A stretch of 64,000 bases of DNA from Eubacteriales bacterium. GTDB taxonomy: Bacteria > Bacillota > Clostridia > Oscillospirales > CAG-272. The stretch lies in assembly GCA_045631445.1 (NCBI GenBank), contig JAZQUS010000102.1, positions 23,916 to 87,915 on the forward strand, in the 5' to 3' direction. Shown here piece after piece: positions 54 to 8,393 of the stretch; the stretch's first letter is position 1; each line of letters begins with the position of its first letter. Under the pieces are notes generated by a model. That model was not told the origin of the DNA. It worked only from the letters and a program-made list of their open reading frames with translations, and made no database searches. The position numbers and the translations under genes are program-made.

Positions 54-1037
54 TTAGTTATAGGTTACTGTGCCGTCTTTGGAAATTTGACCGTCGGTGC
101 AATAGATTGTGTATTCAGGAGAACCTTCATCCCAATTACTATATTTGTTAATACTGTCCCACTCTTCTATTGTGCCTCTATAACGAATAGTTGTTAAATT
201 CGGGGAATTGTATAAAATACCGCCATAGATATATGAAACTGATTTAGGTATATATAGTTCATGAATAAATTCATTGAATCCAAAAGCTCCGGGTTCAATC
301 CAAATTGTTCCGAATGGTATTTCATATGAATAATCATTTTTGGAACAAGGATATGCTCCAATTCCAACACCATCAATATCAGCAAAAAGAACACCATCTA
401 TTGATTTACAGAAAGAATGATTTGGATCTACATATATATTTTCTATCGAGGTTTGGGAAAAAGCAAGAAATCCTAACGAAGAACACTGCTTAGGCAAAGT
501 AATTGAAGTTAATGAATAACATCCAAAAAATGCATATTCAGAAATACGCAAATCTCGATTGCTTTTGGCAAACGAAACATTTTTAAGATTAATACAATAT
601 CCAAATGCTTCAATACCTATATATGTAACAGTCGATGGTATGGTTATTTCTTGCAAAGACCTACAGGCAAAAAATGCTCCATTGCCTATTGATTCTAAAG
701 AAGATGATGTATCTAACCCTACTACGCATTCAAGATTATAACAATCAGCAAAAGCCCTTTCTCCTATTTCAATAACTGTTGCGGGCATGAAAACTGTTTT
801 TATATTTGATGAATTAAATGCTTTATCGGCAATTGCTGTTACTGTATATTCCCCTATTTTTTCAGGTATTACGATTTCATCTCCCTCATAATCGCCAATT
901 CCCGTTATTGTGCAGGTTTTTTTATCGCTATTTATTTCATATTCTAATTCATTCGAATTAGAACTTAAACAAGCTGTAAATATCGACGTTGCACATAGAA
1001 TCAAAACTATGATATGGAATTTTATCGAAAATTTCAT
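54..1037 (-). CDS. BspA-type leucine-rich-repeat surface lipoprotein
   Basis: 327-aa ORF. N-terminal signal peptide with lipobox (SIFTAC). Repeated ~23-aa units with the IG.xAF..C..L pattern (IGERAFADCYNL, IGNGAFFACRSL, IGIEAFGYCINL) typical of BspA/LRR_5 repeats. Confidence 0.7.
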   Translation of the reverse strand: MKFSIKFHIIVLILCATSIFTACLSSNSNELEYEINSDKKTCTITGIGDYEGDEIVIPEKIGEYTVTAIADKAFNSSNIKTVFMPATVIEIGERAFADCYNLECVVGLDTSSSLESIGNGAFFACRSLQEITIPSTVTYIGIEAFGYCINLKNVSFAKSNRDLRISEYAFFGCYSLTSITLPKQCSSLGFLAFSQTSIENIYVDPNHSFCKSIDGVLFADIDGVGIGAYPCSKNDYSYEIPFGTIWIEPGAFGFNEFIHELYIPKSVSYIYGGILYNSPNLTTIRYRGTIEEWDSINKYSNWDEGSPEYTIYCTDGQISKDGTVTYN

Positions 1038-1244: not shown

Positions 1245-1285
1245 AAGAATCATAATCACCAGTTTCACTGGTGATTATGATTCTT
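1245..1285. terminator. Perfect 17-18 bp inverted repeat hairpin spanning the stop codon of the GTPase-NYN gene
   Basis: AGAATCATAATCACCAG (1246-1262), loop TTTCA, CTGGTGATTATGATTCT (1268-1284). The TAA stop (1275-1277, minus) lies inside the 3' arm. The U-tail is only weak on the minus strand; a T-run follows on the plus strand. Confidence 0.5.
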
Positions 1286-3857
1286 GTTTTTCCGCCAATT
1301 TCTTCACAAAATCAGTTATCTCATTTCCAACAGTAATCAGCTCGTCAACGAATTCTTTTGTGGTCATTCGTGAAATGCCCGAATGAACTGCTGCAAATTG
1401 AACGAGACGGTCACCTGTAACAACTCTAATCTTGTAATTAGGTCCAAGCTCGTGCATCATTCTTTCGATGTAGGCATCGGCGGTTTGATTTTCCTTTGTG
1501 AATACCACCTTATAGCCATCATTTTCAAATTCAGAACCAATGCCTTCTTTAACAAGATAAGCATCAAATACAAGAAACAATTTTTCTTTTGTGAAAGCAA
1601 CGTAATTCGACAAAATATCCATCAAAGTTTCACGCGCCTTTTCAAGTGAATAATCCGAAATTTCCTTCAATGTATCCCAAGAGTAAATAAGGTTGTAACC
1701 GTCAATTATAATCATACTTTCTTGCTTGACTAAAAGCTTTTTATTCGGCTTAATCTTGCCTGCAGAAATCACCTTTGGCTCACTATATTTTTTTCGTCTA
1801 ATCGGTCCAAAGGTACGCATCATTATTGCCTCAACCTCTTCTTCGGAAAGTGAGTAATTCTTGGCAAGTGAAGCCACTCTTGGAATAATAGCAACCTCAT
1901 TTTGAGAAAGGGAAATACCCGCATCGAGATGCTTGTATTGTTCAACCTCGCGCCAATTTACCACAAATCCTGCACCATGAGCGCAGAAAACCGAATGAGG
2001 AGAGTTATCCGTATCACCTTCGGGGTCATAACCCTTTTGGGTAACTATTTCCTCTTGATTGTGGCATTCGTCATATCCGTCGCTTACACAAGTTAGTCGA
2101 CCAAGACCGCGCGTATATGAAATAACCTCTCCCACGTAATCGTGAAGTGTGGCAACAGGCGCACGACCTGTAATATTTGTGAAATCCTCGGTTGTGCTTT
2201 CAATTTCAAACTCCGCACTCCTCATTTGCAAATCGTTCATTGCTCTGCCAACAAGAGAGGAGGGAATTTCAAGTCTAAATTTGTAATATGGCTCAAGAAG
2301 TGTGCAACCACCAACCATAAGTCCGTGACGAACTGCGCGCAATGTTGCTTCTCTAAAATCTCCACCCTCTGTGTGCTTCAGGTGTGATTTGCCTGCCACA
2401 AGCGTAATTTTAGTGTCCGTAAGCAACGCACCCGTAAGAACTCCGCGATGATTTTTCTCATATAAATGCGACAAAATAAGACGTTGCCAGTTTGTCGCAA
2501 GCATATTTTCGGGAATCTTTGTGTCAAAAATCAAACCTGTACCCTTGGGTTGCGGCTCTAGTAAGAGCTGCACCTCGGCATAGTGACGTAGTGGCTCAAA
2601 ATGTCCAATACCGATTGCTTTTGACTTTATTTTTTCTTTATAAAGAATGTTACCCGCACCAAATTGACACTCAATATTGAATCTGTCAAAAATCAATCTT
2701 TTCAAAAGATCAATTTGTATCTCTCCCATAAGTCGCGCTTCAATTTGCGATAATTCTTCATTCCAATAGAGATGAAGGGAAGGTTCTTCCTCTTCAAGTT
2801 CTTTTAACTTTGGAAAGTATAAATTCGCGTCGCTACCATCAGGAAGAATTATCCTATAAGACAACACAGGCTCGAGAACTGGCTTGCAAGTATCAGATTC
2901 CATTCCAATTCCTTGACCTGCATAAGTGGACGAAAGTCCAATTATAGCGCAAATTTCTCCTGCACTTACAGACTCAACCTGTTCAAATTTATCCCCCGAA
3001 TAAAGTCGTATTTGACTAACTTTTTCTGTAACTCTATTGCCATCGGCAGTTAAATATGAAATTTCATCACGTGCAGATAAAGTCCCGCTTGTCAACTTCA
3101 TATAGGAAAGTCGAGTGTTGCCTGAACGAGCAATCTTATATACCTTTGCGCCAAAATTACGATTATCATATATAGGAGAAAGAGAGTATTTATCAATAAC
3201 CTCAATTAAAAAGTCAATTCCTGACATTCTAAGCGCCGATCCAAAAACAACGGGGAATAAAGCTCTATCTGAAATAAGAGTAGCTATTTCTCCGTCATCA
3301 ATAGGAATTTCGGCAAGAAAATCCTCTAAAAACGCTTCATTTACAAGAGCTAATTTCTCATCAAGCTCGTGCTTTGATTGAGTGTCAAAAAAAGCAATGC
3401 AATTAGGAGATAAAACTGAACAAATCTCTGCTTCCTGTTCATCCTTTGTCTTTATTGCAATGTCACTTTTGTTAACGAAAATAAAGGTAGGAATATTGTA
3501 GTATTCAAGCAAATTCCAAAGTGTACGCGTGTGGTTTTGAACTCCGTCCGCCGCACTTATAACCAAAATTGCATAATCCAAAAGGGAAAGAACACGCTCG
3601 GTTTCGGCAGAAAAATCAACGTGTCCGGGTGTATCAAGGAGAATAAAATCACAGTTTTCGCTACTAAAACGCGCCTGCTTTGAAAAGATGGTTATACCAC
3701 GCTCGCGTTCAACCGCATTAGTATCAAGAAAAGTGTTCTTGTGATCAACTCGTCCAAGAGTCCTAATCTTGCCCGAAATATAGAGCAACGCCTCGGAAAG
3801 CGTAGTTTTTCCTGCATCAACGTGCGCAAGAATTCCAATAGTTAGCTTCTTTTTCAT
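1275..3857 (-). CDS. EF-G/TetM-like translational GTPase fused to a C-terminal YacP/Rae1-type NYN ribonuclease domain
   Basis: 860-aa ORF. G1 AHVDAGKT, G2 RGITI, G3 DTPGH, G4 NKSD. Colinear similarity to domains II-V of ribosomal-protection/EF-G GTPases. The last 146 aa (nt 1278-1716) match YacP/Rae1 (IIDGYNLIY, LVFDAY, FTKENQTADAYIE, VVTGD). RBS AAAGGAGAAG lies upstream of the ATG. Confidence 0.85.
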   Translation of the reverse strand: MKKKLTIGILAHVDAGKTTLSEALLYISGKIRTLGRVDHKNTFLDTNAVERERGITIFSKQARFSSENCDFILLDTPGHVDFSAETERVLSLLDYAILVISAADGVQNHTRTLWNLLEYYNIPTFIFVNKSDIAIKTKDEQEAEICSVLSPNCIAFFDTQSKHELDEKLALVNEAFLEDFLAEIPIDDGEIATLISDRALFPVVFGSALRMSGIDFLIEVIDKYSLSPIYDNRNFGAKVYKIARSGNTRLSYMKLTSGTLSARDEISYLTADGNRVTEKVSQIRLYSGDKFEQVESVSAGEICAIIGLSSTYAGQGIGMESDTCKPVLEPVLSYRIILPDGSDANLYFPKLKELEEEEPSLHLYWNEELSQIEARLMGEIQIDLLKRLIFDRFNIECQFGAGNILYKEKIKSKAIGIGHFEPLRHYAEVQLLLEPQPKGTGLIFDTKIPENMLATNWQRLILSHLYEKNHRGVLTGALLTDTKITLVAGKSHLKHTEGGDFREATLRAVRHGLMVGGCTLLEPYYKFRLEIPSSLVGRAMNDLQMRSAEFEIESTTEDFTNITGRAPVATLHDYVGEVISYTRGLGRLTCVSDGYDECHNQEEIVTQKGYDPEGDTDNSPHSVFCAHGAGFVVNWREVEQYKHLDAGISLSQNEVAIIPRVASLAKNYSLSEEEVEAIMMRTFGPIRRKKYSEPKVISAGKIKPNKKLLVKQESMIIIDGYNLIYSWDTLKEISDYSLEKARETLMDILSNYVAFTKEKLFLVFDAYLVKEGIGSEFENDGYKVVFTKENQTADAYIERMMHELGPNYKIRVVTGDRLVQFAAVHSGISRMTTKEFVDELITVGNEITDFVKKLAEKQES

Positions 3858-3966
3858 TTTCTTCTCCTTTCACATAAATTTTCTTAATTATATCATAAAA
3901 CCTCCTCAAATTCAAGCATAAAAAGCAAAATGCAACCCTAAGTAGCAAAAAAGCAACTAAAAAGTA

Positions 3967-3994: not shown

Positions 3995-4023
3995 TAAAGC
4001 ATAAACCGAAAGGAGAAATGTTT

Positions 4024-4704
4024 ATGAAAAACTTAAAACGAACAATATGGGGCATCGTCCTCGTTATAGCGGCGGTAATTCTCGCACTCAACTCATTTGG
4101 CGTTATCAATTTCGACCTCTTTTTTGACGGTTGGTGGACTCTCTTCATCATCATTCCGTCATTCGTGGGCTTAATTCAGGACAGAAACAAGGGCGGAGCC
4201 GTATTTGGACTTTGCATAGGTATTTTATTGCTTCTTTCCGCACAGGAAATCATTAGCTGGGATATGATTTGGAAGATTTCGCTACCCGTTTTTATCGGCC
4301 TTGTTGGCTTGAAAATGATTTTCTCATCCTTCAAAAAGGATAAAACCGACAGAATAATCAAGGAAATCAAAAAGGAAGGCAAAAATCTTCAGCAGGGTAC
4401 GGCGGTATTCTGCGGAACTGAAATGGATTTTGATAATGTTGTGTTCGAGGGAGCGGATTTAACTGCAGTTTTCGGAGGCATTGACTGTGACCTCAGAAAC
4501 GCGATTATTGACCGCGACTGTGTAATAAAGGTTTGCTGTGTTTTTGGCGGCGTTGATATTCTCGTTCCCGATAACGTAAAAATTGTAACCAATACAACCT
4601 CAGTTTTCGGCGGTGTTGAGGTTATGAAAAACCACGATAATTCTGCAATTCACACTATCTACGTTGAGGGCTTATGCACCTTCGGAGGAGTTGATATTAA
4701 ATGA
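4024..4704 (+). CDS. LiaF-like membrane protein (cell-wall-active antibiotic response, DUF2154-type C-terminal domain)
   Basis: N-terminal TM helices. The C-terminal repeat pattern VFGGIDCDL..., VFGGVDILVP..., SVFGGVEV, TFGGVDIK is typical of the LiaF C-domain. Start moved to the ATG at 4024, 8 nt after AGGAG; the ORF-track start at 4018 is too close to the RBS. Confidence 0.65.
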   Translation: MKNLKRTIWGIVLVIAAVILALNSFGVINFDLFFDGWWTLFIIIPSFVGLIQDRNKGGAVFGLCIGILLLLSAQEIISWDMIWKISLPVFIGLVGLKMIFSSFKKDKTDRIIKEIKKEGKNLQQGTAVFCGTEMDFDNVVFEGADLTAVFGGIDCDLRNAIIDRDCVIKVCCVFGGVDILVPDNVKIVTNTTSVFGGVEVMKNHDNSAIHTIYVEGLCTFGGVDIK

Positions 4705-5450
4705 CGCATTTTCAAAGAGTTATAAAATATTTTGCGCTTTTTTTGGCTTTTTCCTTGGCTGCGGCAATAATTTTTGGAGGTATTGGTCTTATGGGAACGA
4801 TTTTTGGAATTAGTAATAATAGCGTGCTTGACGAGATGTATTCAATAGAGCTTTCACAAAATATTGAAAGAATTGATATTGATCTTTCTGCAGCGAGCTT
4901 AAAAATAGTTCTCGGTGATAAATTTGCATTATCAACGAATATAGGAAAATTAAACGTAACAAGCGATTCCACGCTAAAAATCAAACAAAAGCAACATCAA
5001 GTATTTTCCATCAATTACGGAAAAAGCGGTGAAATCATTCTTACCATACCCTCCGACGCAATGTTCCTGTCCTTCGAGCTTGATGCGGGCGCGGGCTCAA
5101 TTGAAATTGAACGTCTTAATTCCCAAAGCGTTGAAATTGATGCAGGCGCAGGTTCTATCAATATAAAAGGCGGAGAAATTGAACGCCTCGATCTCGACCT
5201 CGGCGTCGGAAAAGCCAATATAACCTCTGCAATCAAGGGCAAATCAAATATTGATTGCGGAGTTGGTGAAACCAATATCAATCTTATTGGCAAAATGGAC
5301 GATTATACGCTTGATATAGATACGGGCATTGGCTCAATCACCTTAAACGGTACCGATATAAAAGGTAATACGAAAATCGGCAACGGTCAATATAAGCTTG
5401 AAATTGACGGCGGAGTCGGTGCAATAAATATCAATTTTATCAATGAATAA
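4701..5450 (+). CDS. DUF4097/LiaG-like beta-strand repeat protein with N-terminal TM anchor
   Basis: ATGA overlap with the upstream gene. Repeated D.G.G.I.I units (DAGAGSIEIE, DAGAGSINIK, DLGVGKANIT, DCGVGETNIN, DTGIGSITLN, DGGVGAININ). Confidence 0.65.
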   Translation: MTHFQRVIKYFALFLAFSLAAAIIFGGIGLMGTIFGISNNSVLDEMYSIELSQNIERIDIDLSAASLKIVLGDKFALSTNIGKLNVTSDSTLKIKQKQHQVFSINYGKSGEIILTIPSDAMFLSFELDAGAGSIEIERLNSQSVEIDAGAGSINIKGGEIERLDLDLGVGKANITSAIKGKSNIDCGVGETNINLIGKMDDYTLDIDTGIGSITLNGTDIKGNTKIGNGQYKLEIDGGVGAININFINE

Positions 5451-5994
5451 ATACGAATACGTGCTTAAAAGAAGCAAAAGAAAAAGTATTTCCGTTGAGA
5501 TTAGCAGAGAAGCAAAAATAATAGTCCGCGCTCCGCTAAAAATGAGTGTTAAAGACATTGAGGCGTTCCTGAATTCTAAAAGCCAATGGATTGATAAGCA
5601 TCTTTCTGATGCAAAAGATAAGCTCGCAACAATGTCCAGGAAACTAAGCGAAGCAGAGAAAAACGAGCTAAGAAAAAATGCTAAAATTGTTATAACTAAA
5701 CGAGTTGAATATTTTGCAAAAATTATGAATGTTCAATATAATCGAATCTCCATAAAATTCCAAAAAACTCGTTTTGGAAGCTGCTCAACAAAGAAAAATC
5801 TAAATTTTAATGCGCTTGTGGCTCTTATGCCAAGTGAAATTCTTGATTACGTTATCGTTCACGAGCTTGCGCACCTTATTGAGATGAACCATTCGAAACG
5901 TTTTTGGAAAGAGGTTGAAAATATTCTACCAAGCTATAAAACCCAACGCAAATGGCTAAAGGAAAACGGAACTAAATATATGATGTTAATATAA
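5443..5994 (+). CDS. YgjP-like (DUF45/M48-related) metal-dependent hydrolase
   Basis: HELAHLIEMNHSKRFW zinc motif near the C-terminus, length ~180 aa, 8-nt overlap with the upstream gene. Confidence 0.7.
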   Translation: MNKYEYVLKRSKRKSISVEISREAKIIVRAPLKMSVKDIEAFLNSKSQWIDKHLSDAKDKLATMSRKLSEAEKNELRKNAKIVITKRVEYFAKIMNVQYNRISIKFQKTRFGSCSTKKNLNFNALVALMPSEILDYVIVHELAHLIEMNHSKRFWKEVENILPSYKTQRKWLKENGTKYMMLI

Positions 5995-6659: not shown

Positions 6660-8393
6660 TTAAAAATCCTTCTTTTTCAAAAGCATTAATGCTGCAAAGG
6701 AAACAGCCGCAGTGCTAATTGAAATAGAAATTAAAATATTATTTATAGCAACTGATTCATCGTTTGCAGTAATAGCTTCTTCATTATATTCAGAAACCAA
6801 GCTCTTGAATTTTGCGTATTGTTCACTAAGCGAATCCTTATCTGCTTGTGAAAGACTGTTATATATATTGATTGCCTTGCAAATCTTTTGATATTTTTCT
6901 TCACCGGAAACAGTACCGTTGTTCAATTCAACAACTATATTAGCAAAATCATCCTTAGTACCTACGGGTGTTGTAGGTTCTTTCTGACCGCAAACAGTGC
7001 AGAGCCCATTTTCGTATGCGTGATTTACAGTGTTGGTATAAGAATCAATATAAGAATCACCGCAATCACAGGTATGAGTTGTATAACCCTGAGATGTGCA
7101 AGTGGGTTTGGTCACAACGGATGTATATGAGTGAGTATGATCATACTTGATAACAATCGTTTCCGTATTTCCGCAGACAGAACAATCTCTGTGCTTGGAT
7201 CCGTCCTCGGTTGCAGTTGCTTCCTTGTCAATAATCCACGCACCATAAGAGTGACCTAGAGCAGAAATAGTAGTTGTTTTAGTTGTTGAACAACGTGTGC
7301 AGGTAATTGTGTTAACACCGTTAGTTGTACAACCTGCAGGCGTTGTCACCTCACCGTTATTCCAAGAGTGGCCCAATGCTTCAACCATTGTTTTTCCACA
7401 TTTTGTACAAGTTTGTGTAGTTGTACAAGTAGCAGAACTACCGCCTACGTGATCACATCCACCACCGCTTGCTTCACCGGATGGAGAAACAAGCTCATCA
7501 GGAACCTCACGTCCGAAAACGAGCCAAGCGTATTCGGGATAATCGATAAACACGTTTCTGTTACCCTGAATATCCTGAACTACCTCATTTCTTCCAAGCT
7601 CCCAAGTGTCAACGGGGTCAATAAGCATCCATTCAAGAAGAACGTCAACACTCTGGAATACTTCAGTAACGGAATCAGCGCCCCAAGATGAGCCCCATCT
7701 AATCCAAACGTAGAGAACGATTCTTGCAACGTCACCTTTAACGTTATCAAGAGGTTCAAAATATGTAGAGTTGTAATAACCGCCAAGATAACCAGTAGCT
7801 GGGTTGGAACCGTATTTTGCTGTTCCACCATTTGTGTTACCATACTTTTTATTTCCACGAGTACTGTTAACTACAGCATCAGAGGGACGAATGTGATGCA
7901 AGTCAGCACCACCACCACTTGTATTACCACCACCGAGAGATTGAGGCCAAACGTGTTCGCGGTTCCATCCATTCCACTGACTCATAGTAGCGGAATAATT
8001 AGTATAAATAAGGGAAACTCTTCCATCTTCGTTTTCACAGTCTGTTCTGTCTACTTTGTAATGACAGTCATTGTAAGAAGATATGTAGGAGTGTGTGCTC
8101 TTCATAAGAGTAGCAAGCGCACTTTTAATTTCATTAGCGCTCTTTTCGGAAAGCACATCGTATTCATAGCTTCCGCTATAGTAAGCATCCGCGCTCGTGC
8201 CGTTAAGAGTAGTAGCCACAACGTCTCGCTGACCTGAATTGTATTGACTTGAATACTTTGATGGTTGTCCTGCAGCTTGTTGTATGCTTGTGTCAACTTC
8301 AACAGGGGTAAATGCAAAAACACTTACAACAGTTGACTGAACGAGCATAACAAGAACAAGGAACAATGTTAATAATTTGAGAATTTTGTTCAT
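6660..8393 (-). CDS. Secreted endonuclease-I/Bsn-type nuclease with Cys-rich repeat region and C-terminal TM anchor
   Basis: Signal peptide. NREHVWPQSLGG and DLHHIRPSDAVVNSTRGN motifs of the Endonuclease_1 (Bsn/YurI-like) family. Residues ~312-470 contain repeated (A)LGHS(W/Y)...C..C modules. Hydrophobic tail ILISISISTAAVSFAALMLL followed by KKKDF. Confidence 0.8.
   Translation of the reverse strand: MNKILKLLTLFLVLVMLVQSTVVSVFAFTPVEVDTSIQQAAGQPSKYSSQYNSGQRDVVATTLNGTSADAYYSGSYEYDVLSEKSANEIKSALATLMKSTHSYISSYNDCHYKVDRTDCENEDGRVSLIYTNYSATMSQWNGWNREHVWPQSLGGGNTSGGGADLHHIRPSDAVVNSTRGNKKYGNTNGGTAKYGSNPATGYLGGYYNSTYFEPLDNVKGDVARIVLYVWIRWGSSWGADSVTEVFQSVDVLLEWMLIDPVDTWELGRNEVVQDIQGNRNVFIDYPEYAWLVFGREVPDELVSPSGEASGGGCDHVGGSSATCTTTQTCTKCGKTMVEALGHSWNNGEVTTPAGCTTNGVNTITCTRCSTTKTTTISALGHSYGAWIIDKEATATEDGSKHRDCSVCGNTETIVIKYDHTHSYTSVVTKPTCTSQGYTTHTCDCGDSYIDSYTNTVNHAYENGLCTVCGQKEPTTPVGTKDDFANIVVELNNGTVSGEEKYQKICKAINIYNSLSQADKDSLSEQYAKFKSLVSEYNEEAITANDESVAINNILISISISTAAVSFAALMLLKKKDF

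Follow-up and report, generated by a model that had tools for sequence, protein, structure and literature searches.

A conserved fusion of an EF-G/Tet-like GTPase and a Rae1/YacP-type nuclease domain in gut Clostridia, a candidate factor for stalled ribosomes

The minus strand of a 64,000-nucleotide stretch of DNA from a Eubacteriales bacterium (GenBank assembly GCA_045631445.1, contig JAZQUS010000102.1, positions 23,916 to 87,915; the whole stretch is referred to here as the window) carries at 1275..3857 a gene for a translational GTPase of the EF-G/Tet type joined in one chain to a predicted NYN ribonuclease domain of the YacP/Rae1 type. The fusion is a conserved and widespread gene of gut Clostridia. 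Its product is interpreted here as a GTPase-anchored Rae1-type nuclease acting on RNA at stalled ribosomes, a housekeeping-type factor encoded on the chromosome, and this interpretation is judged to be about evenly balanced between right and wrong. The TetM-like/NYN_YacP fusion was recorded by Atkinson in 2015 in ten species (PMC4342817) and by Matelska et al. in 2017 with its role left open (PMC5499597); both papers recorded the fusion only, without family size, conservation analysis, structure or function. The window protein has the same architecture and the same taxonomic home and belongs to this family of Clostridia. An earlier reading of the window made from its letters (the sequence-only reading) knew of no characterised protein with this architecture. 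The literature search likewise found no paper characterising any member of the family, but the architecture itself has been known since 2015. The feature picked out by that reading is real and well conserved within a family already recorded, whereas the rationale it offered, cleavage of mRNA in the ribosomal A site, is outdated and its novelty was overstated.

The gene is a single unbroken open reading frame (ORF) of 860 amino acids with an ATG start, as the sequence-only reading had described it, and every sequence motif quoted there is located in the ORF. The GTPase motifs G1 AHVDAGKT (residues 11-18), G2 RGITI (53-57), G3 DTPGH (75-79) and G4 NKSD (129-132) are accompanied by GSAL in the G5 region, completing the G1-G5 set including the catalytic His of DxxGH. 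The EF-G-like body carries LLEPYYKFRLEIP at residues 520-532 and RAPVATLHDYVGEVISYTRG at 565-584, and the NYN domain carries IIDGYNLIY (717-725), LVFDAY (762-767), FTKENQTADAYIE (786-798) and VVTGD (812-816). A Pfam scan, which had been proposed with the earlier reading, recovers the EF-G-type domains and NYN_YacP, with GTP_EFTU over residues 4-224 (E = 6e-49), EF-G_D2 over residues 245-313 above its cut-off, EFG_IV over 415-514 (2e-12) and EFG_C over 520-601 (8e-18); EFG_III at 329-400 scores 22.4 bits, under its cut-off of 27. NYN_YacP (PF05991) covers residues 716-857 (1.1e-40, 139.8 bits compared with a gathering cut-off of 24.6, profile positions 1-144 of 166), and the C terminus aligns with the Bacillus subtilis YacP structures (PDB codes 5MQ8 and 5MQ9, residues 3-145, 143 residues, E = 8.5e-23), bearing out the kinship with YacP/Rae1 that had been proposed. 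The single-domain format of NYN_YacP/Rae1 proteins (~170 amino acids) is not seen, the NYN domain being the C-terminal part of an 860-amino acid protein. The AlphaFold2 model calculated from 81 diverse members has a mean predicted local distance difference test score (pLDDT) of 91.8 and a predicted template modelling score of 0.75; it replaced a discarded run on a shallow alignment (73-93% identity) that gave a pLDDT of 57. Approximately 690 columns of the model align to ribosome-bound EF-G in Foldseek (1e-51). Motifs, domain order and the predicted fold together identify the protein as a five-domain translational GTPase of the EF-G/EF2 type. The colinearity with EF-G noted previously is upheld, but the body stops at about residue 600 and not at the ~680 given then.

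Conservation was assessed over 81 aligned members sharing 36-48% identity with the window protein. The GTPase residues D14, G16, K17, T56, D75-T76-P77-G78-H79, K130 and D132 are invariant in this set, as are the NYN residues D719, D765, D794 and D816 (81/81), so that the acidic NYN positions are intact as originally claimed. D719 and D794 align with D7 and D81 of Rae1 in the 5MQ8/5MQ9 alignment, and Rae1 loses its catalytic activity in the D7N D81N double mutant (PMC10351889). Because no catalytic residue of the GTPase and none of the four NYN aspartates varies in this set, both activities appear to be under joint selection; read from the alignment, this would make GTP hydrolysis as well as RNA cleavage necessary for the role of the protein.

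The family is large and the fusion constant within it. NCBI holds a 100% identical protein (P0001) and 119 further clusters of 73-99% identity, all of ~860 amino acids and with PF05991 in every one. The contig index gave no exact match to the window protein, and relatives served for comparison. Residues 591-860, used as the query of a full HMMER pass, returned 259 clusters (50% identity) at E <= 1e-30, most of the full-length matches being 830-1000 amino acids long with the aligned part at ~590-860. Species-representative genomes, one per species, were scanned with two peptide motifs taken solely from the interval between domain V and NYN (FC[AT]HGAGF and YDPExD..N, both within a conserved module at residues 598-655, derived from a 6-sequence alignment). 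This survey of the fused architecture, suggested with the earlier reading, gave at least 587 confirmed relatives among the 600 matches listed, and these fall in Oscillospirales, Lachnospirales and Monoglobales, with Oscillospiraceae, Faecousia, Evtepia, Ruminococcus, Ruminiclostridium, Acutalibacteraceae, Blautia, Roseburia, Acetatifactor and other Lachnospiraceae represented. The closest species representative among the matches listed is an uncultured 'Eubacteriales bacterium' gut metagenome-assembled genome (MAG) with 91% identity over the 139-residue query (L007). Agathobacter rectalis and Monoglobus pectinilyticus are among the cultured species that carry the gene. The spread across these species matches looks vertical. 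Of 86 loci fetched, the 80 complete ones all encode NYN together with the G domain, domains IV/V and the module as a single ORF and the other 6 are truncated by contig ends; the module was never observed without NYN among the fetched loci. The composition of the gene matches the surrounding DNA, indicating that it is native, and there is one copy per locus. An apparent second copy in the MAG JAFVSI01 (L015 and L017, the same gene with 100% identity over 463 amino acids) was rejected as a paralogue, being a duplicated contig that reflects assembly redundancy. No stand-alone yacP is found within the window or in 1.24 Mb of related loci, the stretches covered by the search.

The 114 residues between domain V and NYN, described previously as a ~110-amino acid linker, are not a simple linker and hold a conserved folded module followed by a tether. 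No Pfam family is matched by this region in the Pfam scan. The module (residues 598-655) has the consensus PCHN..EVI...GYDPE.D..N..DSVFC.HGAG..V.W.EV..MH and is predicted by AlphaFold2 as one helix, a β-hairpin and a short helix, with block-mean pLDDT values of at least 90 up to residue 650. Y610, F624 and G628 are present in all 81 members, C598 and H643 in 77 and C625 in 75, and H599 and H627 are frequent; the conserved cysteine and histidine residues (C598, C625 and H643, with H599 and H627) may form a metal site. Values of pLDDT below 50 occur only at residues 658-671 and 689-708, and between these low-confidence stretches lies a semi-conserved, weakly predicted helix at 672-683 (E.LE.I..RT[FY]GP). 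The length and sequence of the tether differ from member to member. In the window protein the 29 residues 684-712 are strongly basic, with 10 Lys/Arg and 1 Asp/Glu, as expected of a segment running along RNA. In the model the NYN domain hangs on a tether of ~57 residues past what appears to be a fixed extension of domain V.

The interpretation draws on Rae1, the only characterised enzyme related to the NYN domain. Free Rae1 cleaves the mRNA of stalled or collided ribosomes, feeding trans-translation (PMC12407103, PMC13622287), and creates substrates for transfer-messenger RNA (tmRNA) on collided ribosomes (PMC13622287). The NYN domain resembles Rae1/YacP in fold and in sequence over the 143 aligned residues and has the D7 and D81 equivalents with two other conserved aspartates, and a ribosome-associated action would be expected. 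It differs in that Rae1 is a free protein of ~170 amino acids that binds ribosomes transiently, for which reason, according to a 2026 preprint, no ribosome-bound Rae1 structure exists (PMC13622287), whereas the NYN domain here is permanently tethered to a GTPase; the window gene also lies outside any gltX...yacO-yacP operon. The sequence-only reading had proposed a GTPase-delivered nuclease for A-site mRNA. Its premise, the A-site cleavage model for Rae1, was withdrawn by its own authors and revised in 2025, and, judging from known ribosome complexes of EF-G and TetM, a domain IV of the EF-G/Tet type would itself occupy the 30S A site, where a NYN domain of the same chain could not be placed simultaneously. 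With domain IV filling the A site, NYN would have to act elsewhere within reach of the tether.

In the mechanism proposed for the GTPase-anchored nuclease, the EF-G/Tet-like body in its GTP form would dock in the factor-binding site of a stuck ribosome and the family-specific tip of domain IV would probe the decoding centre. The NYN domain, on its ~57-residue tether beyond the module, would then cut RNA exposed outside the A site, the likeliest target being mRNA at the ribosome edge or at the interface of collided ribosomes, where free Rae1 cuts. The cut message would pass to tmRNA or to the RQC (ribosome-associated quality control) pathway and GTP hydrolysis would free the factor. Functional analogies, and analogies only, are offered by SmrB of Escherichia coli, Cue2 of yeast and the eukaryotic pair Hbs1-Dom34. 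In these systems stalled or collided ribosomes receive a nuclease or an A-site probe, delivered for Hbs1-Dom34 by a translational GTPase. The nuclease fold there is SMR, which is unrelated to NYN, and in these systems sensor and nuclease are separate proteins, whereas here they form one chain. Ribosome quality control or rescue, one of the roles suggested in the sequence-only reading, is the best-supported of the readings considered, the points in its favour being the architecture, the co-conservation of both catalytic centres, the constancy of the fusion, the size of the family, the native character of the gene, the linkage of one clade to YlmH, the biology of Rae1 and the basic tether. The data establish the architecture, the intact and jointly conserved catalytic centres, the wide vertical distribution and the failure in the tests for tetracycline protection; that the protein binds ribosomes, which RNA it cuts and where, and what GTP contributes are inferences. 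A more specific form of this reading is put forward tentatively, namely that the protein is a single-chain 'sensor plus scissors' for GTPase-gated bacterial no-go decay in much of the gut Clostridia, working with YlmH in one clade. The finer detail, equally tentative, is that the GTPase would check the decoding centre and that GTP would license and then release the tethered Rae1 nuclease, an arrangement with no characterised counterpart.

The family gene is mostly solitary, with flanking genes that are ordinary chromosomal ones and differ between clades. One neighbour alone recurs, a gene of the YlmH family (Pfam YlmH_RBD) that follows immediately downstream in the same orientation; it was found at 11 of the 72 loci that the neighbour census covered and at 13 of 74 in a profile search. 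These loci form one clade, in which 13 of the 14 members have the neighbour with gaps of about -25 to +120 nucleotides; at the 14th there is nearly no sequence between the gene and the contig end. At L026 the two genes are 2 nucleotides apart and the ribosome-binding site of the YlmH gene lies inside the upstream gene. In B. subtilis, YlmH acts as a factor of RQC (PMC11317155). Identity of the family protein within the clade drops to 51%, and the linkage, which is a new observation here, reflects one evolutionary event kept through considerable divergence; it is suggestive and is not a general property of the family. Several points weigh against a role in rescue of stalled ribosomes. The YlmH link is limited to that one clade and is missing from most loci, no YlmH gene is present in the window, and occasional neighbours (Dus, MnmG, TadA, the CCA-adding enzyme, RsmH and GltX) suit RNA processing about equally.

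These neighbours lead to the alternative that the protein is a factor for ribosome biogenesis, RNA maturation or ribosome turnover, in which the GTPase would dock on immature, idle or damaged ribosomes and NYN would trim or cleave rRNA or tRNA and not mRNA; it is assigned a small but appreciable probability. YacP-type NYN proteins were first predicted to be rRNA/tRNA processors from the gltX-cysS-mrnC-yacO-yacP operon (PMC5499597, PMC4342817), and a role in ribosome biogenesis is also considered for YlmH (PMC11317155). At L001-L003 (10754-11692) the family stop codon overlaps the start of the tRNA-dihydrouridine synthase (Dus) gene, with MurJ and GreA following; this Dus-linked clade of 918-amino acid proteins is abundant, one cluster being present on 103 contigs. 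At L087 the family gene lies between rsmH (upstream) and gltX (downstream), a placement that recalls the B. subtilis gltX...yacP operon, and the neighbour census contains TadA twice, the CCA-adding enzyme twice and MnmG. Each tRNA/rRNA neighbour is however found at just 1-3 of ~70 loci, and the sole characterised enzyme of the YacP family, Rae1, has an mRNA-cutting activity that depends on translation (PMC10351889). The full EF-G-type domain IV with its invariant tip also points to probing of the decoding centre in an assembled ribosome.

The nature of the GTPase body bears on the second alternative, a TetM/TetO-like tetracycline ribosomal protection protein with an incidental extra nuclease domain, which is considered improbable. 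TetM and TetO are the nearest sequence relatives of the body and share its five-domain plan and its order of size. The top NCBIfam match is tet_protect (391 bits compared with 278 bits for EF-G), the best PDB sequence match is TetO (1.6e-65), the A. rectalis member is entered in RefSeq as a 'TetM/TetW/TetO/TetS family tetracycline resistance ribosomal protection protein', and the possibility was raised by Atkinson in 2015 (PMC4342817). The curated models nevertheless score far below their cut-offs, with 391 against 775 for NF012153, 258 against 1100 for NF033148 (TetM/W/O/S) and 220 against 1420 for NF012155. The YSPVS loop of TetM and TetO is the drug-displacing loop seen in their ribosome structures. 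The position of the TetO loop 'YYSPVS' reads 'SHLKHTEGG' here and is conserved so in the family; the TetO sequence GLYYSPVSTPADFR stands opposite GKSHLKHTEGGDFR, and the TetO segment YYSPVSTPADFR is aligned with SHLKHTEGGDFR in the window protein and SYHEVDSSAMAFK in EF-G, the Tet motif not being retained. The domain IV tip has its own pattern of conservation, with G418, H419 and E428 invariant in the 81 members and E421, P422, L423, H425, Y426, A427, K494, H495, T496, G498, G499, D500, F501 and R502 at least 90% conserved, including the KHTEGGDFR form; the first tip loop GHFEPLRHYAEV is conserved family-wide. In addition, Tet protection genes are mostly found on mobile elements and preceded by a leader or attenuator. 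The short leader upstream of the window gene holds neither an attenuator nor a leader peptide, the gene has a non-mobile chromosomal setting with native composition, housekeeping neighbours and an apparently vertical spread, the C terminus is 260 amino acids longer than in TetM/TetO, and the Tet assignment leaves the invariance of the four nuclease aspartates unexplained. Membership of the Tet protection family was examined through curated models, loop and context, and by these available tests the protein fails as a tetracycline-protection protein. Neither is it EF-G proper, the EF-G equivalog TIGR00484 scoring 246 bits compared with a cut-off of 659.4. The likeness to EF-G lies in the fold and the GTPase motifs, and His492 aligns with the conserved His of the EF-G domain IV tip; the differences are the shorter G domain (230 residues), the other domain IV loops and the added nuclease.

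A toxin-like or anti-phage effector, which would shut down translation by ribosome-bound RNA cutting under stress or infection, is highly improbable. Toxin and defence systems frequently employ NYN and PIN nucleases. Just upstream of the A. rectalis member (L088, NZ_CP143948.1, 4120-6921) the opposite strand carries a BrnT/CopG toxin-antitoxin pair, and a member is present in two 'Bacteriophage sp.' records. On the other side, 0 PADLOC families are matched, defence genes are not among the neighbours, the neighbour census shows no recurring partner of antitoxin or immunity type, and the single native-composition copy per locus has a wide vertical distribution. A phage origin was rejected, both 'Bacteriophage sp.' records being unverified and unannotated and the one examined (L087, MT835514.1, 'UNVERIFIED: Bacteriophage sp.', 1-37759) being bacterial DNA with genes for AddAB, CspB protease, FeoB, RsmH, GltX, glycerol kinase and cardiolipin synthase. 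A plasmid origin was rejected likewise. The A. rectalis record is labelled a plasmid and carries housekeeping genes, and the two 'plasmid' records with full-length matches are replicons of 252 kb and 518 kb with methionyl aminopeptidase, SSB and SecA. The phage- or stress-triggered translation shut-off offered in the sequence-only reading accordingly finds no support, the context being neither a defence nor a mobile one.

That an adjacent tet-like GTPase gene and yacP were joined by a sequencing or assembly error, the frameshift or two-gene artefact that the earlier reading wished to see checked, has a negligible probability and is ruled out by the comparative data, with no point found in its favour, the 120 close-relative clusters and the complete loci of other species all having the single ORF format and the interval between GTPase and NYN being itself conserved and confidently folded.

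Table 1. Features of the fusion gene and its flanks in the window (positions in the 64,000-nucleotide stretch)
Feature	Position	Strand	Description	Basis
Whole gene	1275..3857	-	EF-G/Tet-like GTPase and YacP/Rae1 NYN domain; stop codon TAA 1275-1277	ORF list, Pfam, NCBIfam
G domain	3168..3857	-	Residues 1-230, motifs G1-G5 and catalytic His79 (codon 3621-3623)	GTP_EFTU 6e-49
EF-G-type domains II-V	2067..3152	-	II (~236-318), III (329-400), IV (401-518), V (519-597)	Pfam, AlphaFold2, Foldseek
Domain IV	2304..2657	-	Family-specific tip loops GHFEPLRHYAEV (418-429) and H492-x-KHTEGGDFR (492-502)	Conservation, alignment
Conserved module after domain V	1893..2066	-	Residues 598-655	Conservation and AlphaFold2; no Pfam family
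Flexible tether	1722..1892	-	Residues 656-712	pLDDT, length and sequence variation between members
NYN_YacP (Rae1-type) ribonuclease domain (predicted)	1278..1721	-	Residues 713-860	PF05991 1.1e-40; 5MQ8 8.5e-23
Catalytic Asp codons (predicted)	1701-1703; 1563-1565; 1476-1478; 1410-1412	-	D719; D765; D794; D816	
Hairpin	1245..1285	-	Perfect 19-bp stem, 3-nt loop, spanning the stop codon	Fold and consensus scan
Putative promoter and ribosome-binding site	3861..3915	-	TTGAAT-17 nt-TG-TATAAT 3915..3887; ribosome-binding site AAAGGAGAAG 3870-3861	Consensus match only

The coordinates are collected in Table 1. A GGAG ribosome-binding site, read from the sequence, lies 6 nucleotides ahead of the ATG. 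A promoter-like match at 1732..1705 inside the gene was dismissed as chance, as its transcript would start past Met715 and Met715 is not conserved. At the other end, the sequence-only reading had reported a perfect 17-bp hairpin over the stop codon; the hairpin exists but is larger, with 19 bp. The 76-nucleotide stretch 1225-1300 folds at -28.4 kcal/mol (z = -6.9 compared with shuffles) and the stop codon is within the stem. The strand of the gene has an A-run ahead of the stem and no U-run behind the hairpin; in many relatives a canonical hairpin with a U-tract stands just past the stop. The hairpin is likely the 3'-end or terminator structure of a singly transcribed gene. On the plus strand a T-run (GTTTTTCC) lies past the stem, and no plus-strand gene ends there. 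Immediately past the hairpin a perfect 12/12 sigma-70 consensus (TTGACA, 17 nucleotides, TATAAT) is found at 1214-1242 on the minus strand, ~170 nucleotides upstream of the next minus-strand gene, which encodes a BspA-type leucine-rich-repeat protein (54..1037) and would accordingly have a long leader. Divergent to the fusion gene, a plus-strand cluster at 4018-5994 with overlapping stops and starts encodes a LiaF-like membrane protein, a DUF4097 'toastrack' protein and a YgjP-like metallopeptidase and looks like a cell-envelope stress module. Further along, the product of 6660-8393 (minus strand) is a secreted protein of 577 amino acids in which an Endonuclease I domain precedes Cys/Thr-rich repeats (..CTTTQTCTKCG.., ..CTTNGVNTITCTRC..), with a membrane anchor at the C terminus. 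Searches of the window for tRNA, rRNA and Rfam elements gave none.

At least some members of the family are annotated, probably wrongly, as tetracycline resistance proteins, so gut-metagenome resistome surveys may over-count tet genes. The fusion could help to show how Rae1 reaches and engages the ribosome. In this natural Rae1-GTPase fusion a GTP analogue or a His79 mutation could hold the GTPase on the ribosome, which would offer a practical way to trap a Rae1-type nuclease there. If it is true that the GTPase gates the cut, the mechanism would be new to bacterial ribosome rescue and present in many abundant species of the human and animal gut.

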